Shown: positions 397 through 22,593 of the stretch, in pieces
Layout of the letters: every line of letters begins with the position of its first letter
Numbering within the stretch: the first letter of the stretch is position 1
Source of the DNA: Promethearchaeota archaeon
Lineage (GTDB): Archaea; Asgardarchaeota; Hermodarchaeia; Hermodarchaeales; Hermodarchaeaceae
Assembly: GCA_048939245.1 (NCBI GenBank)
Contig: JBHLPR010000027.1
Span: forward strand, 1 to 28,717
Length of the DNA stretch: 28,717 nucleotides
Reading direction: 5' to 3'
Notes under the pieces: generated by a model
Told to the model about the DNA's origin: nothing
The model's database searches: none
What the model saw: only the letters and a program-made list of their open reading frames with translations
Made by a program: the position numbers and the translations under genes

Positions 397-1035
397 ATGG
401 CTGGAGAAGAATTGTTGGTCTTCTGGATCATGGCAGCAATATTTGGTATCGCAACTGTGATGTTTACCTTACTTTCCTTTCGTTCAGATTCAAATGAGTT
501 TTATGCCTTCGTCGATATTCTCGTTACCTTCATAACAACGATTTCATATGTACTCATGGCGCTGGGGTTCTTAGTGGTCACTTCTGGTATTGGTGAACCG
601 GTGTATTGGAGTCGATGGCTCTTTTACATGGGTAGCTGTAGTTTACTGACCGTTTCTGTTGTAGTTATCCTTAAACAAACTCAGGCAATTAATTTCGCAA
701 AAATTCCTATCTTAACGATGCTTGTAATGTTCTGTGGTTTTCTCGCGGCTTTTATTACAAGTATTGAGCGATGGTGGTTCTTTGTATTCAGTTCCATTGC
801 CTACATTGCCTTATTAATCACCTTGTTTAAAGGGGTGCCTCGAGAAGGAATGAATTCACAACTTATGTGGTTCATCGTCATCTTCTGGTCTCTATTTCCT
901 GGCGTATTTATCCTTGCACCAACCGGTTTCGGCTTGATACCCACATTATATGCAGCGATTCTCTATGCTGCACTGGACGTGATAACAAAAATCGTCTATG
1001 GGTTCATTATCCTGTTTCGAGTGAAAGATAAGTAA
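397..1035 (+). CDS. Microbial rhodopsin of schizorhodopsin type (short 7-TM opsin, retinal Lys present)
   Basis: 212 aa with about 7 hydrophobic segments. Helix C YWSRWLFYMGSCSLL has Phe at the BR D85 position followed by S-C, as in schizorhodopsins. Helix F FWSLFP; helix G LDVITK (D194, K198). AGGAG RBS upstream. Confidence 0.88.
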   Translation: MAGEELLVFWIMAAIFGIATVMFTLLSFRSDSNEFYAFVDILVTFITTISYVLMALGFLVVTSGIGEPVYWSRWLFYMGSCSLLTVSVVVILKQTQAINFAKIPILTMLVMFCGFLAAFITSIERWWFFVFSSIAYIALLITLFKGVPREGMNSQLMWFIVIFWSLFPGVFILAPTGFGLIPTLYAAILYAALDVITKIVYGFIILFRVKDK

Positions 1036-1168
1036 TCTAAATAACAGAATCACATGGTCAAAGTGAGTATTGAGTCATAGTATAATCAGTGGTTCAGAAT
1101 TTAACCTCTGCCTGAATGCATCTAGTCTATCAAACTGTGACCACTAGTAATTTTTTCCAACTATCTCC

Positions 1169-2563
1169 TTATCGATTTAACGAAGTGGTCGCAAAGAGTT
1201 CCTTTGAATATTGACTCTCCTCTTTGTGATTTACTATTGGTTTTGGGTAATTGATTTGCGAATCAAATGGTGTTGGTTTAAACCAACGATGAATAAGTTT
1301 TGGTTGTAGGTCTGATAATTCTGGAATCCATTTCTTGATATACTCACATTTTACGTCGTATTTCTCTTGTTGGCGCCAGGGATTAAAAATTCGGAAATAG
1401 GGTTGGGCATCGGCTCCTGTTGAGGCTGCCCATTGCCAGTTTCCATTATTCACGCATGGATCATAATCGGTGAGGTGTTGTGCAAAATAGCGTTCACCCC
1501 ATCGCCAGTCGATATGGAGATCCTTGGTCAGGAAAGATCCGACAATCATTCGAACCCGATTGTGCATCCAACCCGTTGTATTTAGTTCGCGCATACCAGC
1601 GTCAACGATTGGGAAGCCGGTGTTTCCCTGACACCACATCTCAAAAAGAGTTTGACTGTAGTTCCATTGAAGGGAATCATAGCGTGATTTGAAGGCATTT
1701 TTGAATACGTAAGGGAAATGGAAAGCAATGTGGGTGTAGAAGTCTCGCCAGTAGAGCTGGCGTATTAATGGATGATTGGTTCCAAGGTGTTTGGTGATGG
1801 CATGATAGACTTCGCGAATTGAACACAACCCAAATTTGATATATGTTGATAAGCGTGTGGTTCCATGTTGGTTTGGAAAATCCCTCGTTGTCTGATAATT
1901 CTTGTAACGGCTGAGATTGGAGAGGATGTCTAAGCATGCTGCTCTATTACCTTGAACAAGAAGTGACTCGTTGGGTTTAGTTCTTATCTGCTTGATTATG
2001 CCAATTTTAGGTTTTTGAGGTGCTTTGCTTGTTTTCAGATAATTGGTGTAGGTGTTCTCTTTTGGAGTAGAAATTGGGCGTGCTGATGCCTTTTTGAAAA
2101 AGGGAGTAAATATTTTGTAGGGTTTGGTTTTTCCGGTAAAGATCATTTCTGGTTCATTTAGTAAAGAATCGCCGAATGAATGAAATCCCACTTTATAGTC
2201 CTTACAAATCTGTTTAATCTGAGTGTCTCTTCTCCGACTAAAGGGGGAGTAATCTCGGTTTATATAGAGTCCATCAATTTCATATTCTGTTAACAGGGAT
2301 GGAATGATCTTTTCTGGAATGCCTAAAAGGTAAAGGAGCTGGCTCTTCTTCTTTTTTAGTTGGGCATCTAAATCGTCAAGTGCTTCCATCATGAATTGGA
2401 TCGCATTCAGGTGGGGTTGGGCCTGTTCTATTAGCCGGGGATCAAAGATGAAGCAGGGAAGGGTTTTGTCCGAATTTGCTAAGGCATGAATTAATGCAGT
2501 ATTATCAGCCAGTCGGAGATCACGACGAAAAATGAATAAAGGCTTAACATAGGATTTATTCAA
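1169..2563 (-). CDS. phrB: Deoxyribodipyrimidine (CPD) photolyase
   Basis: FRRDLRLADN N-terminus, WRDFY, TGFPIVDAGMREL, GWMHNRVRM, DYDPCVNNGNWQW and FRIFNP FAD-binding motifs. Likely TTG start at 2563; the ORF track extends to 2611. Confidence 0.95.
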   Translation of the reverse strand: MNKSYVKPLFIFRRDLRLADNTALIHALANSDKTLPCFIFDPRLIEQAQPHLNAIQFMMEALDDLDAQLKKKKSQLLYLLGIPEKIIPSLLTEYEIDGLYINRDYSPFSRRRDTQIKQICKDYKVGFHSFGDSLLNEPEMIFTGKTKPYKIFTPFFKKASARPISTPKENTYTNYLKTSKAPQKPKIGIIKQIRTKPNESLLVQGNRAACLDILSNLSRYKNYQTTRDFPNQHGTTRLSTYIKFGLCSIREVYHAITKHLGTNHPLIRQLYWRDFYTHIAFHFPYVFKNAFKSRYDSLQWNYSQTLFEMWCQGNTGFPIVDAGMRELNTTGWMHNRVRMIVGSFLTKDLHIDWRWGERYFAQHLTDYDPCVNNGNWQWAASTGADAQPYFRIFNPWRQQEKYDVKCEYIKKWIPELSDLQPKLIHRWFKPTPFDSQINYPKPIVNHKEESQYSKELFATTSLNR

Positions 2564-2639
2564 GTTGGTGCCCCTAGCAATATATCGATATCGAATATAT
2601 GTGAGAAGCAATTCCTCAAGTATGTATGGGGTGAACTAA

Positions 2640-3116
2640 GTGTCGATTGTTAAATTACCACAAATGGAGCATCAGATGGTTGAGGATTTACTAAATTCTC
2701 AAGTGATTTGCCGCATAGCCTTTCGGGGGGATGATTATCCATACATGGCACCTTTTCAGTATGCTTATGTTGATGGAAATCTCTATTTTCATTTTACTCG
2801 CTATGGAAAGAAAATGAAACTGCTTGAAGAGGATAATCGGGTTGCGGTGGAGATTGAAGCTTTTGAGCCAGCTCTTCATCAATATTGTTTTGTCGTGTTT
2901 CGAGGAGAACTTGTTTTAGTTCGTGATTCTATGGAAAGGGAGAAAGCGATAAACCATATGGCTAAGTTTGGATCCGAAAAACTGTCAACTAATTTTCTAG
3001 CAGCACATGGGTTGAAGAGATCTGATGGCTGGCAAGCGTTGACAGTTGAGAAACCATTGAATATTGTGAAGCTCACAAACATCGTCGAAACAATTGCTTT
3101 GGGTTCGCCTGATTAA
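2640..3116 (+). CDS. Pyridoxamine 5'-phosphate oxidase-like / NimA-type FMN-binding split-barrel protein
   Basis: RIAF..YPYMAP..LYFH..GKKM..NRVAVE pattern; divergent from the photolyase. Confidence 0.8.
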   Translation: MSIVKLPQMEHQMVEDLLNSQVICRIAFRGDDYPYMAPFQYAYVDGNLYFHFTRYGKKMKLLEEDNRVAVEIEAFEPALHQYCFVVFRGELVLVRDSMEREKAINHMAKFGSEKLSTNFLAAHGLKRSDGWQALTVEKPLNIVKLTNIVETIALGSPD

Positions 3117-3247
3117 TTCGAACTGGGCTCTCTTAAAATGATAAATGAATACGAACAGATTGTTGGTCCTCAGTCTTGGAAGCGAACCGGAGCGATGGTT
3201 TTGCACCGGATGCTCAGACTGCGATTTATGCTGTCCACGAATTGTTT

Positions 3248-3523
3248 TTAGCCTTTGCGGAAGGCTATGCCAAAAGTTCCGCGTGGATAATTCCATTGGA
3301 TGGCGTCTTTATTGCATATGATTTTGCATGTGCCACATTCGATGCAGTCTTCATATTGGAATTGGACTTGGCCCTCGATAAGTTGAAAGCAGTGTGCTGG
3401 ACAGGCAAGTCTGCAGGGTTTGGATTCACATTCTTTGCATTCTTCAAAATTGACTAAAATGTGGGCTTCTTTATCGATATTGTATCGGAGCGTGCTAAGT
3501 TTGGTTTCAATATTATCCCTCAT
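3248..3523 (-). CDS. fixX: Ferredoxin-like protein FixX
   Basis: AHI, CxxC, CPAxC, CIECGTC and WxYPRGxFGI motifs; ATGA overlap with the upstream fixC. Confidence 0.9.
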   Translation of the reverse strand: MRDNIETKLSTLRYNIDKEAHILVNFEECKECESKPCRLACPAHCFQLIEGQVQFQYEDCIECGTCKIICNKDAIQWNYPRGTFGIAFRKG

Positions 3524-4818
3524 AGGCCTCTCACCGCTTGTAATCCATCGATCATGAGGTGTGGAATCGATAATTCGTGAACGATATTTTTGAGGAGTAG
3601 GTTAAGGAGCTTGGGTCGGGGTGTTGCTTTTGACTGGTATAATTGTAGGACTAACTCGTTGATGAAATCTGGATACCGCTCCATTAGGCGGGGGTTGCTT
3701 ACTATGGCTGGTGCATGACGAAACGTTTTCAGGTTTTTGAAAACAAAACTTTGTTTCATTAGATATTGATAATATTTCATGGTCTTTTTAGTAAAATCGT
3801 TCCGTTGTTGGGCTCTAGCGATTGTCGTGGCAGCAGCAATACCTGATGCGATAGCAAAGTTCATCCCTTCAAGAGCATAGCCAATATTAAGGGCGAACCC
3901 TGCAGCATCGCCTGTGACGAGAAAGCCATTGGAATACAACTTAGAAAGCGCTTGATATCCACCTTCGGGAACAAGGTGTGCTGAATATTCAATGTGATTT
4001 CCATCCTTGATTAATCGTTGAACATAGGGGAATTGTTTCAGATAATCAATGAATTCAAAGGATTTCGTTTTTATATCATTCTTGAAGGTTGGAAGCTTGA
4101 CGACTATTCCCAAAGAGAGGCTTTCACGGTTGGTGTAAAGAAACCCTCCACCAGGAAATCCCTTAGTACAGCCCAAATAGGTATGAGCTGCCCCCTCATC
4201 ATCTTCGAGGTGAAACCGATTTTCGATTATTTCACGGGGGAGTTGAATGACTTCTTTAATACCAAGGCCGATATTCTTGGTTTTTAGATCTTTGCGTAAA
4301 CCTGCATGCTCAGTTAGCAGTGAATTGATTCCATCAGCTGCAACAACTACATTTGCCCGAATCTCATCATCACCAGCTTTGATTCCGATAACACGGTTGT
4401 TTTCCCAAAGTAGGTTATCAACTCGAATGCCGGTGGCAAGGAGTGCTCCAGCTTCTTCTGCGCGTTTGGCAAACCATTGATCAAAGTCATAGCGGATGAT
4501 GGAATAGCCGTTATGTGGGGGCTTTTCAAGTCGTTTACTAGAAAAATCAAACGAGAGTGAAGATTGACCGCTTAGGAAGACAAGGTTCCTGTTGGTAATC
4601 GTCCGTTCGAGTGGTGCATCTTCCCAGAAATTTGGTATCAAATCATGAAGCACAGATCCAAATAGTACGCCTCCTGAGACATTTTTTTCTCCGGGAGTTT
4701 TTGCTCGTTCGATTAAAAGCACTTCATGCCCTGATTTGGCAAGGCTATACGCGGTGGCTGAACCAGCGGGTCCTGCTCCAACTACGATTGTATCGACTTT
4801 TTCAACCATTTTTTTCAT
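3520..4818 (-). CDS. fixC: FixC-family FAD oxidoreductase (ETF:quinone oxidoreductase-like)
   Basis: VGAGPAG, GEKNVSGG, ADGINS, GGGFLYTN, EYSAHLVPEGG and GDAAGF..EGMNFAIASG motifs; coupled to fixX. Confidence 0.88.
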   Translation of the reverse strand: MKKMVEKVDTIVVGAGPAGSATAYSLAKSGHEVLLIERAKTPGEKNVSGGVLFGSVLHDLIPNFWEDAPLERTITNRNLVFLSGQSSLSFDFSSKRLEKPPHNGYSIIRYDFDQWFAKRAEEAGALLATGIRVDNLLWENNRVIGIKAGDDEIRANVVVAADGINSLLTEHAGLRKDLKTKNIGLGIKEVIQLPREIIENRFHLEDDEGAAHTYLGCTKGFPGGGFLYTNRESLSLGIVVKLPTFKNDIKTKSFEFIDYLKQFPYVQRLIKDGNHIEYSAHLVPEGGYQALSKLYSNGFLVTGDAAGFALNIGYALEGMNFAIASGIAAATTIARAQQRNDFTKKTMKYYQYLMKQSFVFKNLKTFRHAPAIVSNPRLMERYPDFINELVLQLYQSKATPRPKLLNLLLKNIVHELSIPHLMIDGLQAVRGL

Positions 4819-4821
4819 TCC

Positions 4822-6348
4822 CTATGTGCTTTTTGATTTTTCTTCTATTGGGATGCCGTAATCTTCAAAAATTAAATCTGTCGACACTTTTCCGCTAAGG
4901 AATGCACTTGGGACGCCTCCGCCTGGATGCGTTCCTGCTCCAACAATATAAAGTCCTTTGACATCCCGTGAACGGTTATGGGGCCTAAACCATCCGGATT
5001 GGGTCATGAGGGGTTGTAATTGGAAGGCGTTGCCTTTGTATGCATTGAATTCTTGTTCAAAATCTTGTGGGGTGAAGACTTCGCATACCTCGATGTTCTC
5101 CAAAAGGTCGGGGAGATAATTATCATTGAGAAATTGTAGTACCTTGTCTCGAAAGGGTTCCTTCATTTGATCCCAATCAATACCCGAATCTTGGTTGGTT
5201 ACAGGCACACAGGCATAGAAGGTTTCACATCCTTCTGGTGCTAACTCTGGATCCGTTCGTGTGGGGACATGCAGGTAGATGGCAAAATCGTCGGGTAAGA
5301 TATGACGATCGAAGATATCCTTGACCAATTCCTTATATCGTGGGCTGAAGATGATATTGTGGTGAGGCATTTCCGGATAGCGTTTCTTTGTACCAAAATA
5401 GATCATAAATAGGCTCATGCTATACTTTGCTTTCTTGTATCGACGATTACTATTTTTGCGACGGTATTTCTTGTCAATTAGGCTCATGTATGTCATTGCT
5501 ACATCTGCGTTGCTGATCACAATATCGGCGGGATAGAGTTCTTTGTTGTTAACAATGACTCCGGTGACTTTTCGGTCTTCATCATCGACTTCTATCATGG
5601 TAACCTCTGAGTTGAGTTTGATTGTGCCACCGAGTTCTTTGAATAATCGTTCTAGGGCTTCAACGAGTCGATGGGTACCCCCTCGGACCCAGAGCATGCC
5701 ATATTCACTTTCGAGGTATGCGATTAGTGAATAGACGCTAGTAGTGGTAAAGGGGTTTCCACCGATGAAAAGAGGGAGAAAGGAGAACGCCATGCGAAGA
5801 TGGGGGTGTTTCATGTTGCTTGCTACAAGGCCATAAACGCTCTTATACGATTTCAGTCGGATTGCTGAAGGAACAATTTTTGCCATGCTCCACAGACTTT
5901 CAAAGGAGATCATGGCAAATTTCTCAAATCCCAATTCATAAATGGGTTTCAATAGCTTGAGCCAGCGATGATATCCTTTGATGTCCTTGGGGCTGATTTT
6001 TTTGATCTGTTCAGTAATTTCGTCAATAGTTCCAATATCAAAGTGGGAACCATCGGCAAAATGAAGACGATAATGTGGATGGATTGGTACTAATTCAATA
6101 TACTTGGAGGGGTCTCGTCCCACATCGTGAAACACATCTTCTACCACAAACGGCGGTGTTACAATTGTAGGTCCGGTATCGAACCTGTATCCTTTTCTTT
6201 CAAAGACACCTGCTCGACCTCCAAGTTGGTGACGTTTCTCTAATAATACAACTTGGTATCCTGCAGCCTGCATCCTTACAGCTGCGGATAGACCACCAAA
6301 TCCTCCACCGATCACAATCACATTAGATGGGGTAGTCGTTTGATTCAT
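4822..6348 (-). CDS. crtI: Phytoene desaturase
   Basis: IGGGFGGL FAD motif, FDTGPTIVT, GGNPF, HHNIIF and the C-terminal FRPHN..GAGTHPGGGVP signature; directly downstream of crtB. Confidence 0.9.
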   Translation of the reverse strand: MNQTTTPSNVIVIGGGFGGLSAAVRMQAAGYQVVLLEKRHQLGGRAGVFERKGYRFDTGPTIVTPPFVVEDVFHDVGRDPSKYIELVPIHPHYRLHFADGSHFDIGTIDEITEQIKKISPKDIKGYHRWLKLLKPIYELGFEKFAMISFESLWSMAKIVPSAIRLKSYKSVYGLVASNMKHPHLRMAFSFLPLFIGGNPFTTTSVYSLIAYLESEYGMLWVRGGTHRLVEALERLFKELGGTIKLNSEVTMIEVDDEDRKVTGVIVNNKELYPADIVISNADVAMTYMSLIDKKYRRKNSNRRYKKAKYSMSLFMIYFGTKKRYPEMPHHNIIFSPRYKELVKDIFDRHILPDDFAIYLHVPTRTDPELAPEGCETFYACVPVTNQDSGIDWDQMKEPFRDKVLQFLNDNYLPDLLENIEVCEVFTPQDFEQEFNAYKGNAFQLQPLMTQSGWFRPHNRSRDVKGLYIVGAGTHPGGGVPSAFLSGKVSTDLIFEDYGIPIEEKSKST

Positions 6349-6393
6349 TCTCTTTTCACCATCAATAATTCGTATCCTACTAATTACTCAAAG

Positions 6394-7347
6394 TTAGGGG
6401 TGAATTACGAACTCTCTCAAATCGCGTAAATATTCTCGCCGACATTGAAGAGAAATCCAGAACTTCTTCCATTTGGGTACATACACCCGTTTTTTGAAGA
6501 CATCATAATTCACTTTCTCGATTTCATCGAGAATATTTGCGTAAACACGAGCCGCAACTTTCACAGAAAATGCTGCAGCTGGTGGAAGATCTTGAATGCC
6601 AATTTCTGCTGTTGCATAGTTTGCACGAGCATTGGCAATTTCGAATTTAATTAAATTCCTGAAATTTGGAGTGATTTTTCGAGCTTCAAAATCTTCTCTT
6701 CTAATCCTGAACTTCTTACGTACCTCAACTGGTATGTAGATTCGTCCTTTATCGAAGTCTTCTGCAATATCCCGCAAAATGTTTGTTTGTTGCATGGCGA
6801 TTCCAAGATCAGAGGCTCGTTGAAGCGTCTCTGGATGGATAGCTCGCCAGATGTGGCACATAGAGAGTCCCACCGTGGATGCTACACGAAAACAGTAGAG
6901 TTCTAGCTCTTGTTGGGTTTGGATTTCTTGGTGATGAACGTCCATGCGGACGCCTTCCAGTAACTCATATAGGTATTGGACTGGGATTTGATATTTTACC
7001 AAGGTGTCTCCAAAGGCGTGAAATACTGGGTGGTTAAAGGTTTCTCCGTTGCTTAACCGGCTTATAATCTCGGCTAGTCTATTTATTTCAGTATCAATTT
7101 GTTTTGGCTCGAGGTCTATTTCATCAACGAAGTCATCAGCTAACCGGCAAAATCCATAAAGTGCAGCGATGCTTCTACGTTGTTCTGGTTCAAGGTAACG
7201 TGAAGCAAAAGAAAATGATTTGGCATGTTTTCCGAATAGGTTCATACAATAGTCGTATGCGCGGTTGAGATCGGCAGATGTGAAGTTATCCTTGGTTTGG
7301 ATTTGGGTTGGTATGACTTCTAGATGGTAACGTTCTCCCCTAATCAT
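6394..7347 (-). CDS. crtB: Phytoene synthase
   Basis: AKSFSFAS, LYGFCRLADDFVD, YCFRVASTVG and LGIAMQQTNILRDIAED..GRIYIP squalene/phytoene synthase motifs. Confidence 0.93.
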   Translation of the reverse strand: MIRGERYHLEVIPTQIQTKDNFTSADLNRAYDYCMNLFGKHAKSFSFASRYLEPEQRRSIAALYGFCRLADDFVDEIDLEPKQIDTEINRLAEIISRLSNGETFNHPVFHAFGDTLVKYQIPVQYLYELLEGVRMDVHHQEIQTQQELELYCFRVASTVGLSMCHIWRAIHPETLQRASDLGIAMQQTNILRDIAEDFDKGRIYIPVEVRKKFRIRREDFEARKITPNFRNLIKFEIANARANYATAEIGIQDLPPAAAFSVKVAARVYANILDEIEKVNYDVFKKRVYVPKWKKFWISLQCRREYLRDLREFVIHP

Positions 7348-7551
7348 TGATTTAACGCTCCAATAGGCTAAACTTAACGGGGTTGATTTTGGGTTGGGGG
7401 GATATTTTTTGCTTATAAATAATTTCCTCTTACTATCGTCATAATCTAATACATATCACAATTTGTTTAAAGAACAATTAGACGTCACAATAATGCATAA
7501 TGATTAAATAAAGCAAGCTATGACAGCGCTTTATTCTGAGGGAACGCTACA
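7348..7551. promoter_or_regulatory. AT-rich divergent promoter region between crtB and crtD
   Basis: 204-bp non-coding gap between head-to-head operons, with TATA-like boxes (TTATAAAT, TTAAATA) and a short TTGTT-N5-AACAA inverted repeat. Confidence 0.55.
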
Positions 7552-9030
7552 ATGGCTATTCAGAACATATTGGTTATTGGTGCAGGCGTAGGCGGATTAT
7601 CTGCTGCTGCCTTACTAGCAAAAGAAGGCTATGATGTCACCATCATTGAAAGGAATGCAGAACCCGGAGGACGGGCGCGAGTTTGGAAAACCGAAGGATT
7701 TGTCTTTGATATGGGACCCTCTTGGTACCTGATGCCTGAAATCTTTGAGTATTTTTTTAATGAATTTGGGAAATCAGTTTCGGATTATTATGAATTAATA
7801 CGGTTGGATCCGAATTATCGCATTTTCTTTGGCACTGACGATATTGTCGAGATTACTGCTGATCTTGAACCAAATCTGCAAACTTTTGAAGGATTTGAAG
7901 CAGGTGGTTCGAAGAAACTCCAAGAATATTTGGACAAAGCCAAGGACACCTATGAGTATATGATGGAAGGCATCATGTACAAAGACCTAGACAGCTTTTG
8001 GTCAATGTTTAGTCCGTCATTAATGAAAGCAGGAATGAAATTGCACATCCTAAGTAACATTGATGAATACGTCCAAAAATTCTTCAGAAGTGACCGTGCT
8101 CGAAAAATTCTAGAATATCCAATTGTGTTTCTTGGTGGAAATCCGAAAAATACTCCTGCGCTCTACTCTATCATTTCACATATTGATTACAATCTGGGTG
8201 TCTGGTATCCGCGAGGTGGTATCGGGAAAATCCCTGAAAGTCTAATGAATTTGGCAAAGGAGCAAGGTGCTGATATCCAGTTTGGGGTTGAAGCAACTCA
8301 TATTGATGTAAAGAATCGCTTTGCCCATCGAGTCCAAACATCAGAAGGTGGCATTGATACAGACTTGGTGGTTGTCAATGCTGATTATCCCTGGAGTGAA
8401 ATCAATTTACTTGACTCATCATATGAGACTTATCCTGCAAAATATTGGGAGAAGAAGGTAATTGCTCCTTCCGCATTCGTTGTCTATCTAGGCGTTGATA
8501 GGAAACTGGACCAGCTCACTCACCATAATGTCTTTTTAGAATACGATTGGGTTCAACATTTCGACCAGATTTTCAAGAAACCTTCATGGCCTGATAAGCC
8601 TGCATACTATGTCTGTTGTCCATCAAGATACGATTCCTTGGTAGCTCCAAAGGGCAAAGAGAATATTTTCATTACCGTTCCCATTTCGCCTGGAATTGAA
8701 GATACACCAACAATTCGTAGCGCGTATCTTGACAAAATTATCGCTCATATGGAGAAACTTATTGGTGAACGATTCCGAGACGAAATAAGTGTTAAGCGGA
8801 TTTTCTCGTTGAATGATTTCTCTAAAGATTATAATGCATACCAAGGGACTGCCGTTGGTCTCACTCATACTTTTCGCCAATCTGCTTTCTTCCGTCCACG
8901 ACACCGAAGTAAGAAAGTGAAAAACCTTTACTACACAGGTCAGTACACGCATCCTGGAATCGGGGTGCCAATGGCCCTTGTTTCCTCAAAGATTGTCACT
9001 GACCAAATCAATAAACACTTTGAAGGCTGA
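7552..9030 (+). CDS. crtD: Second CrtI-family carotenoid desaturase, probably carotenoid 3,4-desaturase CrtD
   Basis: IGAGVGGL, FDMGPSWYLMP and HTFRQSAFFRP..TGQYTHPGIGVPM motifs. First gene of a desaturase-elongase-hydratase triplet as in haloarchaea. CrtD versus CrtI is inferred from context only. Confidence 0.72.
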   Translation: MAIQNILVIGAGVGGLSAAALLAKEGYDVTIIERNAEPGGRARVWKTEGFVFDMGPSWYLMPEIFEYFFNEFGKSVSDYYELIRLDPNYRIFFGTDDIVEITADLEPNLQTFEGFEAGGSKKLQEYLDKAKDTYEYMMEGIMYKDLDSFWSMFSPSLMKAGMKLHILSNIDEYVQKFFRSDRARKILEYPIVFLGGNPKNTPALYSIISHIDYNLGVWYPRGGIGKIPESLMNLAKEQGADIQFGVEATHIDVKNRFAHRVQTSEGGIDTDLVVVNADYPWSEINLLDSSYETYPAKYWEKKVIAPSAFVVYLGVDRKLDQLTHHNVFLEYDWVQHFDQIFKKPSWPDKPAYYVCCPSRYDSLVAPKGKENIFITVPISPGIEDTPTIRSAYLDKIIAHMEKLIGERFRDEISVKRIFSLNDFSKDYNAYQGTAVGLTHTFRQSAFFRPRHRSKKVKNLYYTGQYTHPGIGVPMALVSSKIVTDQINKHFEG

Positions 9031-9041
9031 GGTTCTAAGCA

Positions 9042-9902
9042 ATGAGTAGCATAGCACGCCTTGCATGGCGGATTTCACGACCACGATTTTGGCTCTACTT
9101 AGGAGGTACGTACCTCATTGGTTATTCCATCGGGGTAACCACGCTCATCCACTTCCTCAATCCCTTCTTCGCGCTTCAACTCTTTTTCTTCATGTTCCCT
9201 GCCAATGTCTTCCTATATGGAGTGAACGACTTCTATGACGAGGACACTGACATCTTTAATCCCAAAAAAGATGACAAGGAATATCGCGTCACTTCCAAGG
9301 ATCGACGAAATCTGCTTGCCCTTATTCTAGTTTCATTCATATTCGGAATAATCCTCATGCTACTTCAACCTGATATCATCGCAATGGCTCTTTTTGGAGT
9401 ATTTCTGTTGCTCTCCTTTCTATACAGCGCTAAACCTATTCGGTTTAAAGCCCATCCATTCATTGATTTCATGTCAAATTTCCTCTATGTTCTCCCCGCA
9501 ATCATTGCCTTCTATCAACTTCGCTTCTTCATTCCCCCGATCCTGCCTCTTTTCGCTGCATTCATGTGGACTTCAGCTATGCACCTTTTCTCAGCCGTTC
9601 CCGATATAGAGGCTGATAAACAGGCGAATATAACCACAACGGCCGTTCTTATCGGAGCTATCCCCTCTCTAATTCTTTGCTTCTCCTTTTGGTTCATTTT
9701 TGCCGTTATTCTGGTTTTTCTCGTTCCTTGGAATCCTCCCTGGAATGTGCTAATGTTTGTCTATCCTGCTATCCCCCTCTATCTTCTTCTGCGTCGAAAA
9801 GCGAACATTGAGAAAGTTTATTGGCTCTATCCTTATTGGAACGCTGTCTTCGGGTTACTCCTATTCTTCACCATTACTATTCCAAAAATCGTGATCCCTT
9901 AA
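9042..9902 (+). CDS. lyeJ: Lycopene elongase (UbiA-family prenyltransferase, LyeJ/CrtEb type)
   Basis: SRPRFWLYL, NVFLYGVNDFYDEDTDxFNPKK, YSAxPIRFK and MHLFSAVPDIEAD motifs; multiple TM segments; position between desaturase and CruF. Confidence 0.85.
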   Translation: MSSIARLAWRISRPRFWLYLGGTYLIGYSIGVTTLIHFLNPFFALQLFFFMFPANVFLYGVNDFYDEDTDIFNPKKDDKEYRVTSKDRRNLLALILVSFIFGIILMLLQPDIIAMALFGVFLLLSFLYSAKPIRFKAHPFIDFMSNFLYVLPAIIAFYQLRFFIPPILPLFAAFMWTSAMHLFSAVPDIEADKQANITTTAVLIGAIPSLILCFSFWFIFAVILVFLVPWNPPWNVLMFVYPAIPLYLLLRRKANIEKVYWLYPYWNAVFGLLLFFTITIPKIVIP

Positions 9903-10657
9903 TGAGTCTCAATCAGTTCAATCGTATTATTCCATTTCTATCTATTCTCATAGGCTCTTATGTCGCAAGCTACTTTTTCTTCTTCTTTCCTGTTGCGCTG
10001 CTCCAAGGTAGCCTTAGTATAGTTATCCTTCTTGTCGCATTACCCTGCTTGTTTTTTCTATATCACTGCGTTGGTTGGAAAAGCACACTCCTCATTGTAC
10101 TCACCCTAGGCGGTTTGGTTTTATTAATTGAAAGTATTGGGTTGTTGACAGGGTTTCCATATGGGGTCTTCTATTACACCGATTTAGTTGGATTCAAAGT
10201 CTTTGGGTTAGTGCCTTGGGCTGTTCCATTCGCGTTTTTACCGCTGCTCCTGGGGGCAATTACATTATCCATTCATTATATCGAAACCCCCTGGAAATTA
10301 ATTCTGGGAACTGCATTGCTTTTAGTAGTTATAGATTTGGTTATCGATCCGATTCTCGTGCACTTGGGGGTTTGGGTGTGGGTGCCGCCTGGAGCATATT
10401 ATGGCGTACCAATCTCTAATTTCGTTGGATGGTTCATAACAGGTCTAATAACCGTCTCGATTTTCTTTGTTCTCATCAAACACCGATTTAATCCAAAGCC
10501 CAGACTACCAATTTTCATTGCCCTAAGTCTTGTCCTTACATTGGCTTTCTGGTCTGGCTATGCTTTGTGGTCTATGCTTTATATCCCATTTGTACTCAGT
10601 CTCTGCTTACTTGGGCTATTCCTATTTACATTCGTTAAATACTGGCCTGTGAATTAG
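9902..10657 (+). CDS. cruF: Carotenoid 1,2-hydratase CruF (bisanhydrobacterioruberin hydratase-like)
   Basis: IESIGLLTGFPYG..Y..G..VP, DLVIDP and W.W...G.YYGVPISNFVGW motifs. ATG at 9902 overlaps the lyeJ stop (TAATG). Confidence 0.85.
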   Translation: MSLNQFNRIIPFLSILIGSYVASYFFFFFPVALLQGSLSIVILLVALPCLFFLYHCVGWKSTLLIVLTLGGLVLLIESIGLLTGFPYGVFYYTDLVGFKVFGLVPWAVPFAFLPLLLGAITLSIHYIETPWKLILGTALLLVVIDLVIDPILVHLGVWVWVPPGAYYGVPISNFVGWFITGLITVSIFFVLIKHRFNPKPRLPIFIALSLVLTLAFWSGYALWSMLYIPFVLSLCLLGLFLFTFVKYWPVN

Positions 10658-10684
10658 ATCCATGGCCTGATGGTGAGGTTATAA

Positions 10685-11554
10685 CTAAAAGAAGATGTAA
10701 TTCAGAAGAGTCGCGAAGACTAGCACAAGACAAATCGTAACAAGATATCTTGGTGCACGATAACGCATTTGAACCGCGTTAGGCGTTGTAGGGGTTTTTA
10801 CTAATTGCACACTCCGATAAATCAACCAGCAAGAGGACACCACCGCCACTATGAGGTAAAGAAACCCAAGTTGACCTATGACGCCAATTACAATACTCAT
10901 TATTGATGCTATTGAAAATAAAACTAGGATTAGTTGCGCAGCGCGTTTCGATGAAATCGCTGTAGAAAATGTAGTGACTTTGTTTACTTTATCAATATCG
11001 ACATCTTGAACTTCACTGATGAGAGTACGGCCCATTTCCCAGGACATCCCAAAGAACACAAAAAAAAGAACGAAAGTTGGGAAATACTGGCCTGTGATTG
11101 CGGCGCTACCCAAGAGAATGATAAAAAACACGGCTAGCATGGTGCACACAAAACTGTACGGAATTTCCTGCTTACGCATGTAATTGTATGCAAAAGGCAA
11201 GGGTATAGCAATGAACGCAAGAAGCACACACAACGGATTAAGGAAGAAAGTGAGCACTACTGCTACCACGCCATATGTCAAACCAAGAATTAAGGCTAAT
11301 CTCGGGGGAACTACTCCGCTAGGAATTACCCGGTTCGCGGTTCTCGGATTTTTTTTATCAGTTATCCAATCAAAGTAGTCATTCAATGTGTGAGCAGAAG
11401 CAATTGCTAACGCAACAGCAACATACCCAGTAAGAAAAGGAATGAAAAACGGAATCGTATTAGTACTCAGAAAAGTTGCAGCTATGTAAAAAGATGTGGT
11501 GGTTAGAAGTACGTAGGGTCGAGTTAGTGAAACAAGTCCCCTTAACTTATCCAT
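10685..11554 (-). CDS. UbiA-family prenyltransferase (DGGGP synthase-like paralog, substrate unknown)
   Basis: LTRP, LNDYFDxxxDxxNPRTANRxIPSG and a second acidic motif EVQDVDID; about 8-9 TM segments. ATG at 11554; ORF track starts at 11569. Confidence 0.8.
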   Translation of the reverse strand: MDKLRGLVSLTRPYVLLTTTSFYIAATFLSTNTIPFFIPFLTGYVAVALAIASAHTLNDYFDWITDKKNPRTANRVIPSGVVPPRLALILGLTYGVVAVVLTFFLNPLCVLLAFIAIPLPFAYNYMRKQEIPYSFVCTMLAVFFIILLGSAAITGQYFPTFVLFFVFFGMSWEMGRTLISEVQDVDIDKVNKVTTFSTAISSKRAAQLILVLFSIASIMSIVIGVIGQLGFLYLIVAVVSSCWLIYRSVQLVKTPTTPNAVQMRYRAPRYLVTICLVLVFATLLNYIFF

Positions 11555-11622
11555 ATCAATTACTTCCAAGATTCAATTAATTAGTATTTCAGTTAGGGCT
11601 AGTCCACTAAAGTAGTGGTACA

Positions 11623-12138
11623 CTAAGAGATTTTTTCGATGACATCTTGTGCGAATCGACGGGCTCGTTGAAGTGCTTCTTCATCTGGAAATCCTCTTGG
11701 CATATCTCTTGCATGTTTTACCCGTTCAACTAATTGTGGGTTCTCAGATTGGAGCATTCCTTCAATAAGTTGCTCACTCATATCACCCTGACAGTGGAAA
11801 AGGTCAACAATGTCTGCTCCCTTAGCAGCATCCCTGCATTTTTGTAACCACTCTTGAAGGGGCGGCGCTTGATCAGGAGAGCCATGAGTGATCACTAATG
11901 CGATTCGCCGGCCATTGACATTTTCTTCAAGCCAGTCCTTTGACTCAGGACCTGGCCCAAACATCTCGATCGGAAATCCGACGAAGGACAAATCGTAGCC
12001 TTCTAAGGATATAGTGTCGTCCCATGGTTTTTGTTCTTTTTAAATTTGAACGGCGTCAAACATTGCATCAATAACCTGTTTTGTGTTACCAGTTGCTGTT
12101 CGATATGTAAAGAGGACTTTCAGGATACCAACCTCCAT
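11623..12138 (-). pseudogene. Flavodoxin-family gene interrupted by an in-frame TAA at 12040-12042
   Basis: The same frame upstream of the listed ORF reads MEVGILKVLFTYRTATGNTKQVIDAMFDAVQI*KEQKPWDDTISLEGYDLSFVGFPI. It contains the flavodoxin Y-x-T-x-T-G-N-T loop, then THGS, CQG and PDEEALQRARRFA. Confidence 0.85.
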
Positions 12139-12743: not shown

Positions 12744-14846
12744 GTGATTCAACTTATTGGTGTGCTTGCTGAAGACGGTGTGCCAGTTCGAATTCGGGCA
12801 TTTGTAGATGTAGAATCTGCATCAGTCCTTGGTGGGATTGTTGAGGTTTTGAAAGGATTATCCTCTGAACTGGAACTGGGACAGGTTCAGCGTTTACAAT
12901 TTCAGGAAAATACTCTGCTTGTTACCGAGGCTGAAAAAGGCTATTCAATTATCGCCTTGGCGGATAAAGCGGAAGATTATGTGGAAGGCTTGTTACGTGT
13001 TATCCGAATTGCTATCGATGACTCATCTTTGGTGAAAGCTAGCGAACCTGTCACCGAAAGGATGCGAGTACTTGTAGATGCCATTTTAGATTTTTTTCTA
13101 CAACCAACCTTGGATGTAGCCCTCGAAGAGATCATTGATCCAGTATGGGGCGCTATTCTCGATCGGTTAAACAAGAATAGAGAGTATGCACAGGCTATTG
13201 AGAAGATTGATGTTCTTATTCGTAATTCCAAAGAGCCTGATCAAATCTGGGAAAAACTTGAAGCAAAGGCGAAAGGATCACTTTTAGAGGCTTTGAATCT
13301 CGCGTTCGTTGGACAATTTGATCAAGCTTGTGCAATCGCATTACAACTTGATGAACCACTTGCACAACTTTTTGCTGTCAAAACAGGCCTTCTCGCGCTG
13401 TCGATGACTCATTTAGCCGCTCCGCCCCGTTATCGACTACGCCGAATCGCGGAAGGTCTTCCTCTAAAATATCAACCGTATTCGGAATTAGCGTATGCTA
13501 CGACATTGTATTACGACCGCCTAATGCCGTATGAGGACTATCTGAAAATTTATCAGAATGCGGCTTCAAGATTTACATTCTCAGAGGACGACGAGGGTGT
13601 AATTTTTGCTTTCCTCTTCATTGATACTCGAATTGTAACGCTTCCTGAATTTGCACGTAAATTAGCAGGTTATTTTGAAAAGAAATCACCCATTCTTCAG
13701 AATTACATCCTGGCTATGTCAGATCGACAGCAGTTGTTTACTAAGCTCTATTCAAGCACATCCTATTCGGAATTTAAAAATCAGGTTAGCAGTTGGAAAA
13801 CAAAAATTAGTTCGATTCTAGAAGATGTTAATCAATTCTTAAAACCCGGCTTTTTAGGGAAGTTATTACGTAGCAACCCTGAAGCGGGTCTTAGAGGCTC
13901 GCTTAACTTAGGTACGTATATTGCGTTATATACGGCCTTGGCTGAATCGCCTGTTTTGAATCTTCGGGAACGAAAAGAAGTGCTCGAAGAGGTGTTATGG
14001 GTCTATTCACAATATTTCCGTAAACTACTAGAAAGCAAACTTCCACTCTTTAATTACACAATTGATAGTGTATTTCAAAGTGTTAGCGTTGTGTTAGGCG
14101 AGTTATTCTACCTGCGTTCAGGAGAAGCCCAACACGAACATATCCCAGTGGTTAAGAAATATTTACAGGACGTTCTGGATACTATGACAGTTGATTGGCT
14201 CCGTAAGCATCCAGATACTTCCACCCTGTTTGTATTGTCGAATGCTACATTTCCTGTCCTTCTCTTGGCAAATGCCACAGATGTACTCGAGGTTCGGTTC
14301 CTCTATCTAGCAATGCGTTTGCTTAATACGATGGCATTAATGAAATCACAGAAAATCGATGTTCAAGATTTTACTACGGATTTGCTTAATATCCAAACCT
14401 CGCTAGCAACTTTCATTATACAATTTCTTCCTGATTCACTTGAAAACCAGTATCTAGAACGTTGTGTACGGGTTATACTGCAGGGACATAAGTTTTTCAT
14501 CAAGCACGGAGTCTTATGTCGGGACGATATCGCTTCAGCAACGCTCCTGACAAGATACCTAAGACCGGCCAATTTAACTGATGACTATCGGATTTATGTT
14601 GATTCAGCGATCACTTTGAACCGGGTTGCTGTTCCTGATGTTCAACGGCATGAATCGGATATCGCTATGTTGGCAACGAATTATTTGGGGTTACTGAAAA
14701 AAGCTAGCCAGACCTTTGATGATGAGAAGTACGTGAAACTTGCGAAGACTGCGTTTCAGCAGACCGTTGAAGTTTGGAATAAATATGGATTCGAATATAA
14801 AGCTCAGGAATTCCAGAAACAATATGGCCGGATATTTCAAGATTGA
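12744..14846 (+). CDS. Large protein with N-terminal longin-like domain and helical solenoid-like remainder
   Basis: First ~120 aa (LIGVLAEDGVPV..LGGIVEVLKGLSSEL..VQRLQF..LLV..YSIIALAD) fit the longin beta-beta-alpha-beta-beta-beta-alpha pattern. The rest is Leu/Ala-rich amphipathic helices. Confidence 0.55.
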   Translation: MIQLIGVLAEDGVPVRIRAFVDVESASVLGGIVEVLKGLSSELELGQVQRLQFQENTLLVTEAEKGYSIIALADKAEDYVEGLLRVIRIAIDDSSLVKASEPVTERMRVLVDAILDFFLQPTLDVALEEIIDPVWGAILDRLNKNREYAQAIEKIDVLIRNSKEPDQIWEKLEAKAKGSLLEALNLAFVGQFDQACAIALQLDEPLAQLFAVKTGLLALSMTHLAAPPRYRLRRIAEGLPLKYQPYSELAYATTLYYDRLMPYEDYLKIYQNAASRFTFSEDDEGVIFAFLFIDTRIVTLPEFARKLAGYFEKKSPILQNYILAMSDRQQLFTKLYSSTSYSEFKNQVSSWKTKISSILEDVNQFLKPGFLGKLLRSNPEAGLRGSLNLGTYIALYTALAESPVLNLRERKEVLEEVLWVYSQYFRKLLESKLPLFNYTIDSVFQSVSVVLGELFYLRSGEAQHEHIPVVKKYLQDVLDTMTVDWLRKHPDTSTLFVLSNATFPVLLLANATDVLEVRFLYLAMRLLNTMALMKSQKIDVQDFTTDLLNIQTSLATFIIQFLPDSLENQYLERCVRVILQGHKFFIKHGVLCRDDIASATLLTRYLRPANLTDDYRIYVDSAITLNRVAVPDVQRHESDIAMLATNYLGLLKKASQTFDDEKYVKLAKTAFQQTVEVWNKYGFEYKAQEFQKQYGRIFQD

Positions 14847-21555: not shown

Positions 21556-22593
21556 ATGAGTAAACCCCAATTTATTTTCAAAGTCCCCGTAGCCGGAGAC
21601 GGTGCCGTCGGCAAGACCAGCCTCATCGTCCGGTACACCCAGGGAACTTTTACTGAGACGTACAAAATGACTATTGGCACCTCTTTTGCGGTGAAAACAG
21701 TTGATTTAGATCAGGTGATAGTGAAGCTGCAAATTTGGGATTTGGCGGGACAACCACATTTTGGAGGGGTGCGTCCGTTATTTTATCAGGGGTCAACGGG
21801 CGTCATTTACGTATTTAGTGTGACGGATCGAGCCTCGTTTGATCATTTGGCGGGTTGGCTTGAGGAGGCGCGGAAGAATTCAGGGAATATTCCGGGAATC
21901 CTGATTGGGAATAAGACTGACTTGATGGATCAACGAGTGGTGTCGCGTGAGGAAGCGGAGGCATTCGCGGCCCAAGCAAGCTTAAGGTATATTGAGACAA
22001 GCGCGAAGATGGATGAAAATGTAGGGGATGCCTTTCATTTAATGGCAGCGACGATTATGGAGACCAAACCGGAGTATGGCGTCACCTCTGAAGCTCCGGT
22101 TAAAGTTGCAGTTCCTGAACCAGAAGCGGAACCAGAGGTTAGTCAGCCAGAAGAGCCACAAGTGACGGCTTCTGAGGTTGAACCTGAACCGGAAGTTGAA
22201 CCGATTCCCCTTATCTTAGATGAGTCTGAGGTTCAGAGTCCACCAACACCTGTGCCTGAGCCAGTAGCCCCTGAACCTGAGGTTATTAAGCCGGTTGAGC
22301 CTCCACCGGTAAGTGAATCCGAACCAGTCTCCGTTTCTCCTCCAAGTGAACCCGAGGTGTCATCTGAAGATGTCGTTGTGGAAGTGAAATCCACATCTAA
22401 CCTTGTGGAATTCGTAGGGATTGACCCTCACAGTCTTTCAGAGGAGGATTTTGAGAAAAGATCGATTCATGCAATGCAACGGTTAGGCGTAAGTGAAGTA
22501 GGAGTGTTGGGGACGTTTCTTCGTAGTTTGATTCGTCAAGGGCAACGGGGTGTTGTGATTGAAAGTTTGGAGAGTCTCCAGAAAGATCGCTAG
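21556..22593 (+). CDS. Rab-like small GTPase with long Pro/Glu-rich C-terminal extension
   Basis: G1 GDGAVGKT, G2 YKMTIG, G3 WDLAGQ, G4 NKTD, G5 ETSAK; RabF2 KLQIW intact; AGGAG RBS. Confidence 0.93.
   Translation: MSKPQFIFKVPVAGDGAVGKTSLIVRYTQGTFTETYKMTIGTSFAVKTVDLDQVIVKLQIWDLAGQPHFGGVRPLFYQGSTGVIYVFSVTDRASFDHLAGWLEEARKNSGNIPGILIGNKTDLMDQRVVSREEAEAFAAQASLRYIETSAKMDENVGDAFHLMAATIMETKPEYGVTSEAPVKVAVPEPEAEPEVSQPEEPQVTASEVEPEPEVEPIPLILDESEVQSPPTPVPEPVAPEPEVIKPVEPPPVSESEPVSVSPPSEPEVSSEDVVVEVKSTSNLVEFVGIDPHSLSEEDFEKRSIHAMQRLGVSEVGVLGTFLRSLIRQGQRGVVIESLESLQKDR

Follow-up and report, generated by a model that had tools for sequence, protein, structure and literature searches.

The bacterioruberin pathway of the haloarchaeon Haloarcula japonica includes the genes crtD (c0507), lyeJ (c0506) and cruF (c0505) (Yang et al. 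2015, as cited in PMC9258230 and PMC8305020), and the Haloarcula pathway is also treated in PMC11946383. Among the Asgard archaea, Candidatus (Ca.) Kariarchaeum pelagium (Heimdallarchaeia) has been described as carrying crtB and crtI, with two unnamed genes in the same operon, together with a putative lyeJ and crtD (PMC12137139; preprint 10.1101/2024.09.18.613612). Both versions of that work state that only linear carotenoids can be made, and the preprint adds "of the bacterioruberin series". A 2022 survey treated CruF as specific to Halobacteria, and a 2022 review described methanogens as unstudied for carotenoids (PMC9410494). Here we report a two-operon carotenoid cluster in a Promethearchaeota archaeon of the Hermodarchaeia. 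The stretch analyzed, called the window below, is the whole contig JBHLPR010000027.1 (C110 in our set; 28,717 nucleotides), which belongs to a genome of 2.52 Mb that is 88% complete. Homology and gene context suggest that the product of the cluster is probably an acyclic hydroxylated C45 or C50 carotenoid of the bacterioruberin series.

Organization of the carotenoid cluster

The two operons diverge from a common spacer and comprise the following features, given in window coordinates.

4822-6348, minus strand: crtI, phytoene desaturase, 508 residues
6394-7347, minus strand: crtB, phytoene/squalene synthase family, 317 residues, divergent from crtD
7348-7551, no strand: divergent promoter region, the 204-nt spacer between crtB and crtD
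7552-9030, plus strand: crtD, CrtID-type desaturase of the CrtI family dependent on flavin adenine dinucleotide (FAD), 492 residues; predicted carotenoid 3,4-desaturase, possibly also phytoene desaturase
9042-9902, plus strand: lyeJ-like UbiA prenyltransferase gene, 286 residues; predicted lycopene C5-elongase/1,2-hydratase
9902-10657, plus strand: cruF, membrane protein of the Caroten_synth family, 251 residues from the ATG; predicted carotenoid hydratase

The crtD stop at 9030 is separated from the UbiA ATG at 9042 by an 11-nt gap, and the UbiA stop codon TAA (9900-9902) overlaps the cruF ATG (9902-9904) in a TAATG motif. This tight spacing supports co-transcription of crtD, lyeJ and cruF. 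The open reading frame listing also offered a longer cruF frame from a TTG at 9821. We placed the start at the ATG at 9902, because the Pfam match begins near residue 40 and because cruF directly follows lyeJ in the homologous locus L011. The GC content of the three genes was 0.41-0.44, compared with 0.57-0.71 in the haloarchaeal loci except L103 (0.46). The isoelectric points were 5.9 for CrtD, 9.3 for LyeJ and 9.0 for CruF, so the proteins of the trio are not acidic.

An earlier note on this DNA had described a desaturase, a UbiA-type elongase and CruF running in one direction in the haloarchaeal order, with non-acidic proteins and AT-rich DNA unlike those of haloarchaea, in a probable Asgard host; the coordinates, junctions, isoelectric points and base composition all bore this out. 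As to the host, the window genome and Ca. Hermodarchaeum yapensis (genome G296, locus L020) were placed in one GTDB genus. The nearest LyeJ and CrtI homologues (78-97% identity) came from metagenome-assembled genomes (MAGs) labelled Hermodarchaeota or carrying the older labels Thorarchaeota or Promethearchaeota. The order crtI-crtB / crtD-lyeJ-(cruF) was kept in about 20 independent Asgard contigs, in which LyeJ identity ranged from 55 to 88%. A recurrence of this kind is far beyond chance.

Family membership of the encoded proteins

CrtD matched the Amino_oxidase/CrtI family (E 5e-35) and scored 475 bits against TIGR02734. It also passed the cut-off of NF058655, the NCBI equivalog "bifunctional phytoene desaturase/3,4-desaturase CrtID", with 675.6 bits against 640, while the neighboring crtI reached only 354. 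The cut-off was passed in one of 14 named control genomes. The equivalog reflects a dual activity demonstrated only for Haloarcula C0507 and D1086 (PMC11946383). The window CrtD was 42-45% identical to haloarchaeal CrtD and 50-57% identical to the methanogen-type protein. We predict that it acts as a 3,4-desaturase and possibly also as a phytoene desaturase.

The UbiA protein matched PF01040 with 76.9 bits (E 2e-21) and exceeded the cut-off of NF009516 (PRK12875) with 290.6 bits against 205. Judged by this family cut-off, it withstood one of the conditions that the earlier note had set against its own reading, namely a UbiA protein grouping outside the LyeJ/CrtEb clade. Of the 14 named controls, Haloferax volcanii alone passed NF009516. 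Scores against NF009516 were 376-470 in presumed haloarchaeal genomes, 331-375 in other Halobacteriota, including known Methanoculleus, and about 290 in Asgards. The motifs N62-D63-x-x-D66-x-x-x-D70 and D188-x-x-x-D192 were invariant in our alignment (A1), and the protein was collinear end to end with Halarchaeum LyeJ, at 38% identity over 276 residues. The LyeJ-like UbiA is predicted to be a lycopene elongase/1,2-hydratase using dimethylallyl diphosphate (DMAPP).

CruF matched PF04240 (Caroten_synth) with 142.8 bits against a cut-off of 25 (E 2e-41), and showed 35% identity to Halarchaeum CruF over 179 residues. Bacterial CruF enzymes are C-1',2' hydratases.

CrtB matched PF00494 (SQS_PSY) with 244 bits. 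Its position adjoining crtI was conserved in the Asgard loci, and this context favors a phytoene synthase. CrtI passed the TIGR02734 cut-off with 567.2 bits against 238.1, and its homologues (50-96% identity) were found in MAGs of Hod-, Thor-, Loki-, Odin- and Heimdallarchaeota, Sifarchaeia and Kariarchaeaceae. As a side observation, the crtI frame at 2202-3323 of locus L022, on a complete chromosome labelled Thorarchaeota (CP070761), encodes 373 residues only, and its match leaves the last third of the family profile, at the C-terminal end, uncovered. This crtI may be truncated, and the CrtID-type enzyme would then be the sole desaturase there.

Predicted biosynthetic pathway

The only two CrtI-family genes of the genome (crtI and crtD) and its only CruF gene all lay within the cluster, beside a gene of the phytoene synthase family. 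Two polyprenyl synthases and a type-2 isopentenyl diphosphate isomerase (IDI-2) were encoded elsewhere. No lycopene cyclase of the PF18916 type was detected in the 88%-complete genome. The PF05834 profile gave only weak matches to flavoproteins resembling geranylgeranyl reductase, and it produced matches in cyclase-free control genomes as well. The cleavage enzyme Blh (PF15461) was likewise not detected; this profile rang in none of the controls, so the absence of Blh is not shown by the search. Since no lycopene cyclase or Blh was found, the pathway would stay acyclic.

The proposed steps follow those of the Haloarcula japonica pathway. CrtB would condense a pair of geranylgeranyl diphosphate (GGPP) units into phytoene, and CrtI, possibly aided by the CrtID-type CrtD, would convert phytoene to lycopene. 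The LyeJ-like UbiA would attach a C5 unit from DMAPP to C-2 at one end of lycopene or at both, and would hydrate the 1,2-bond. CrtD would introduce the 3,4 double bonds, and CruF would hydrate the added C5 units. The pigment would most likely reside in the membrane, where it would act as an antioxidant, screen out light and add stiffness. On paper, the route from GGPP through phytoene and lycopene to a C5-elongated, 3,4-desaturated and hydrated acyclic carotenoid would be complete, and it would not lead to retinal. The claim of a complete GGPP-to-C50 pathway was therefore upheld for the gene set, comprising crtB, crtI, crtD, lyeJ, cruF, the polyprenyl synthases and IDI-2, while the C50 product is still a prediction.

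Phylogeny and distribution

An unrooted tree of 52 LyeJ sequences was calculated under LG+C20+F+G4. The Asgard proteins, including that of the window, formed one clade (support 100/99), which was sister (96/86) to a clade from other anaerobic archaea (100/98). Below these two clades lay a grade from a woesearchaeon, Candidate Phyla Radiation (CPR) bins and other bacterial bins. Among the sequences used, no other characterized UbiA subfamily fell between the Asgard and haloarchaeal clades. A quick CrtD tree had the same shape, although the join of the Asgard clade to the methanogen-type clade was weakly supported. The congruence of the two trees indicated that crtD and lyeJ have been inherited, or have travelled, as a module.

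A recent transfer of the genes from haloarchaea to Asgards is unlikely, as the LyeJ and CrtD trees both put the Asgard genes in a separate clade on a long branch. The relevance to transfer that had been expected of this locus was not borne out: with the Asgard LyeJ and CrtD outside the haloarchaeal clade, these two genes are silent on recent transfer. The trees do touch on how the haloarchaeal pathway arose, since its genes appear as one branch of a wider family and not as the source of the Asgard copies.

Searching one genome per species for relatives yielded 213 loci. Among the best 80 of these, 25 were Asgard. Others came from Methanobacteriaceae, Methanomicrobiales (among them Methanoculleus and Methanocalculus in culture), Methanobacterium oryzae, Methanomassiliicoccales, Methanosarcinaceae, Methanofastidiosa, Thermococci, Hadarchaeota, Bathyarchaeia, Woesearchaeota, Borrarchaeum and Methanosuratincola, and from several bins of CPR and other bacteria. 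Of 301 Asgard genomes sampled, 31 (about 10%) had a member of the LyeJ family, most of them in the genus of the window (11 of 14) and in one large family, f6 (17 of 76); none was found in three other large families. It was also present in 31 of 151 sampled genomes (about 20%) of the order of Methanoculleus nereidis, i.e. Methanomicrobiales. These counts indicate that the module is common outside Halobacteria and not exceptional there. They do not support treating its occurrence outside Halobacteria as unusual, nor does the publication on Ca. Kariarchaeum (PMC12137139). The window cluster is a real, intact and well-conserved copy of a pathway already described in Asgard genomes.

The non-Asgard loci shared a four-gene cassette, cruF-crtID-crtB'-lyeJ (L036-L090; e.g. 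Methanoculleus nereidis, L049, 2838-6834, and L043, 1663-6858). Carriers of this cassette were Methanobacteriaceae, Methanomicrobiales (Methanoculleus, Methanocalculus), Methanomassiliicoccales, Methanosarcinaceae, Bathyarchaeia, Hadarchaeota, Woesearchaeota, Borrarchaeum and CPR bacteria; cultured ones include Methanoculleus nereidis, M. sediminis, Methanocalculus chunghsingensis and Methanobacterium oryzae. The 31 Methanomicrobiales genomes counted above have it. The crtB' between crtD and lyeJ was a genuine but short and divergent SQS_PSY gene, and the CrtD of the Methanoculleus cassette also passed the CrtID cut-off. We found no paper on this cassette or on a pigment made from it, nor one on pigments of Hermodarchaeia.

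The methanogen cassette bears on an alternative in which the trio modifies an isoprenoid other than a carotenoid, for instance a polyprenol or the side chain of an ether lipid, in the manner of the Methanosarcina phytoene desaturase homologue that makes hydroxyarchaeol. In M. acetivorans, a CrtI-family protein works on precursors of archaeal lipids (Mori et al. 2015, as cited in PMC9128505 and PMC10821996), and the carriers of the sister cassette include methanogens not known as pigmented. However, the trio of the window has crtB and a bona fide crtI as neighbors, its CrtD scores above the cut-off of the CrtID equivalog, and an SQS_PSY gene is part even of the methanogen cassette. We consider the alternative very unlikely.

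Two further candidates were rejected. A second UbiA gene beside the methanogen cassette was unrelated to the second UbiA of the window (UbiA2, below), and in some Thor-type loci lyeJ is separated from cruF by an unrelated insertion, aldehyde:ferredoxin oxidoreductase. Genes of the LyeJ type, accompanied by crtD and crtB', were also seen in L045, L061 and L088 (CPR bins), L080, L081 and L072. The bins of the bacterial LyeJ-type contigs were Patescibacteria, Gammaproteobacteria, Fimbriimonadales and Bacillota. The Bacillota contig, almost identical in sequence to one from Methanoculleus, is probably a binning error.

Variation within the genus and alternative products

Several points weigh against a product of the bacterioruberin series. 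LyeJ was only 35-40% identical to the haloarchaeal enzymes, and in the LyeJ tree a branch of 1.97 changes per site (100/100) parts the window protein from the haloarchaeal clade with the characterized enzymes. CruF fell below both NCBI equivalog cut-offs (TIGR03460, 116.7 against 154.7; NF041333, 79.7 against 300). NCBIfam did not set CrtB apart from squalene-type synthases: every equivalog stayed below its cut-off, with best scores of 216 for HpnD (below 278.6) and 203 for cyanobacterial CrtB (below 550). The versions in non-halophilic archaea appear to be known from genes alone, and the nearest sister clade consists of strict anaerobes from which no carotenoid has been reported, methanogens being unstudied according to the review cited above (PMC9410494). 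Within the genus, CruF was present in 6 of 14 congeners compared with 11 of 14 for LyeJ, and about half of the congeners that carry LyeJ had a broken cruF or none. The cruF of Ca. H. yapensis was a pseudogene with three stop codons (G296, C64:7156-7719; loci L094 and L141), and the adjoining crtD and lyeJ were intact.

The variation in cruF extended further. Six other congeners with LyeJ yielded no CruF (G248, G257, G290, G301, G306 and G323), and in several Hermod-type loci lyeJ was followed directly by the next gene. Among congeners, crtD and lyeJ were 78-88% identical, and cruF only 49-57%. The conserved core is crtB-crtI plus crtD-lyeJ, and the last hydration step is optional. Because this step is optional, the end products probably differ between species; congeners that have no cruF would end at the bisanhydro stage. 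The place given to CruF in the earlier note thus stood in part: the protein is a Pfam member encoded directly after lyeJ, but it is below both equivalog cut-offs and dispensable within the genus.

In an alternative reading, the cluster would make only C40 acyclic hydroxycarotenoids, along routes of the rhodopin or didehydrorhodopin kind. CruF would be the 1,2-hydratase in these, CrtD would be the 3,4-desaturase, and the UbiA protein would act on another substrate or add nothing to the carotenoid. Such a scheme would fit a CruF assigned just at the Pfam level, short of the bisanhydrobacterioruberin hydratase equivalogs, and a LyeJ far from the characterized clade. However, lyeJ is the best conserved partner of crtD, always adjacent to it, whereas cruF is often lost. 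LyeJ also exceeds the family cut-off with its motifs intact. We therefore regard a C40-only product as unlikely.

The loss or breakage of cruF in several congeners, and the apparently truncated crtI in the complete Thorarchaeota-labelled chromosome, might instead suggest a cluster that has fallen silent or is in decay, a relic without a role in the organism today. Against this, all five genes are intact in the window, the high identity of crtD and lyeJ extends across the genus, and the promoter elements are conserved. A relic is thus highly improbable here, and an elongated, hydroxylated acyclic carotenoid is still the probable product.

Divergent promoter region

Ten Hermod-type crtB-crtD intergenic regions were aligned, and four elements were conserved among them. 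On the crtD side, a TATA-like element, ATTAAATA, lies at 7503-7510, about 49 nt before the crtD ATG, and GAGGGA lies at 7538-7543, 8 nt before it. On the crtB side are a T/A-rich box, TTATAAATA (7413-7421), and a 13-bp near-palindrome before crtB, TTAACGGGGTTGA (7374-7386), which follows the pattern TTAAC-N3-GTTAA with one mismatch in the window. Genome-wide, this pattern had 10 exact copies, compared with about 10 expected from shuffles. As there was no genome-wide enrichment, the palindrome is a candidate operator only.

Genomic neighborhood

The genes flanking the cluster are as follows.

397-1035, plus strand: schizorhodopsin-like opsin; best PDB match SzR4 (7e4g, E 6e-31), retinal Lys present
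1169-2611, in the window: photolyase
2640-3116, in the window: PNPOx-like flavoprotein
3248-3523, minus strand: fixX-like ferredoxin, tightly packed with fixC behind crtI
3520-4818, minus strand: fixC-like flavoprotein of the electron-transfer flavoprotein (ETF):quinone oxidoreductase type, tightly packed behind crtI
10685-11569, minus strand: UbiA2, second UbiA prenyltransferase, convergent to cruF; not assignable to a subfamily, best NCBIfam score well below every cut-off
11623-11991, minus strand: Flavodoxin_3-like gene, after UbiA2

Much of this arrangement formed a conserved island in four species of the genus (window 397-11569; L139, L140 and L141), with the order opsin, photolyase, PNPOx-like gene, [fixX-fixC], crtI-crtB / crtD-lyeJ-[cruF]-ubiA2, where the presence or position of the bracketed genes varies. 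The position of UbiA2 was kept in six Hermod-type loci, and flavodoxin-like genes were also found near lyeJ in two Methanomassiliicoccales loci (L056 and L058). These neighborhood links suggest a role in protection from light and oxidants. A protective role of the pigment in the membrane fits the conserved neighborhood, since this holds a photolyase and a schizorhodopsin-like opsin.

Opsin and lyeJ are 8 kb apart in the window, and the linkage was kept in three other species of the genus. In helix C the opsin has F76-S80-S87 in place of the F-S-E of SzR4, and S87 was invariant in the four Hermodarchaeum copies. Such proximity could suggest that the pathway feeds retinal to the opsin. However, the searches found no lycopene cyclase and no Blh/Brp-type cleavage enzyme (in a genome 88% complete, and with a silent Blh control), and LyeJ would divert lycopene from beta-carotene. 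In family f6, moreover, the cluster was present in 17 of 76 genomes and rhodopsin in none. Retinal supply is accordingly barely conceivable as the function, and we retain the acyclic bacterioruberin-type pigment as the expected product. Nor did a link between the pigment cluster and rhodopsin hold outside the genus. Besides the f6 counts (LyeJ in 17 of 76, rhodopsin in 0 of 76), the 151 Methanomicrobiales genomes included 31 with LyeJ, three with rhodopsin and two with both, on different contigs.

The fixC-like protein scored 373 and 368 bits against PRK10015 and FixC and contained the ETFQO_UQ-bd domain, and the small fixX-like frame had two Cys clusters. The genome has no other FixC/FixX, and the pair lies immediately behind crtI, with one junction of 3 nt and one that overlaps. 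It does not adjoin ETF genes, which sit at the ends of other contigs (C83 and C118). The same position behind crtI was seen in five Hermod-type loci (window, L015, L018, L019 and L139) and in the Asgard contigs L030 and L032, whose LyeJ groups with that of a Thorarchaeota-labelled MAG. The pair lay elsewhere in the island in L141 and was absent from the post-crtI position in most other loci. FixCX is a possible electron outlet for the desaturases. A more speculative proposal, to which we give rather little credence, is that the island of Hermodarchaeum is a light-response unit. FixCX would provide an oxygen-independent outlet, and the C50 pigment would work together with the opsin, either structurally or, in the manner of Halobacterium, with the opsin controlling LyeJ. 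Bacterioruberin-type pigments would then also occur in strict anaerobes, including cultured methanogens.

Elsewhere in the window, we noted two typical Asgard candidates for "eukaryote-like" proteins, a 345-residue Ras/Rab-family GTPase with a long C-terminal extension (21556-22593, plus strand) and a 700-residue protein that had no Pfam match (12744-14846, plus strand).

Comparison with known systems

If the predicted product is correct, C50 "rivet" carotenoids would not be a haloarchaeal speciality. They would belong to an old archaeal and bacterial membrane module that is also present in Asgards, the closest known relatives of eukaryotes. This would bear on how Asgard ether-lipid membranes are stiffened and protected, and on the exposure of these organisms to light and oxidants. 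The prediction is testable in cultured carriers of the sister cassette, namely Methanoculleus, Methanocalculus and Methanobacterium oryzae.

Relative to the Haloarcula japonica genes, for which we rely on Yang et al. (2015) as cited in PMC9258230, the window has the same families in the same order on one strand. The named plasmid locus of Halarchaeum sp. CBA1220 (L128) reads bat-crtB-crtI/D-lyeJ-cruF. In both the haloarchaeal cluster and the window crtB is nearby, and the window CrtD and LyeJ pass NCBI cut-offs built around the haloarchaeal enzymes. However, identities to the haloarchaeal proteins are low (42-45% for CrtD, 35-40% for LyeJ and about 35% for CruF), and the window genes form a separate long-branch clade. 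The window also differs in its non-acidic proteins, its GC content of 41-44%, its additional classical crtI, its fixCX pair and the lack of a bacterio-opsin activator gene.

Ca. Kariarchaeum resembles the window as an Asgard with crtB, crtI, lyeJ and crtD. In contrast to the window, no cruF is listed for it and a putative glycosyltransferase is. Its rhodopsins are outward pumps with a carotenoid fenestration, and are not schizorhodopsin-like.

The cruF-crtID-crtB'-lyeJ cassette represents the nearest sister clade to the Asgard LyeJ (96/86), with identities to the window of 43-51% for LyeJ and 50-57% for CrtD. It differs in its gene order, in the SQS_PSY gene between crtD and lyeJ, and in having no separate crtI. 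The actinobacterial C50 pathways (CrtEb-type, with bacterioruberin in Arthrobacter; PMC9122864) share with the window a CrtI-family gene followed by a UbiA elongase-like gene. However, the proteins of the Arthrobacter plasmid locus (L129) are only 30% (UbiA) and 36% (CrtD) identical to those of the window and lie on very long branches.

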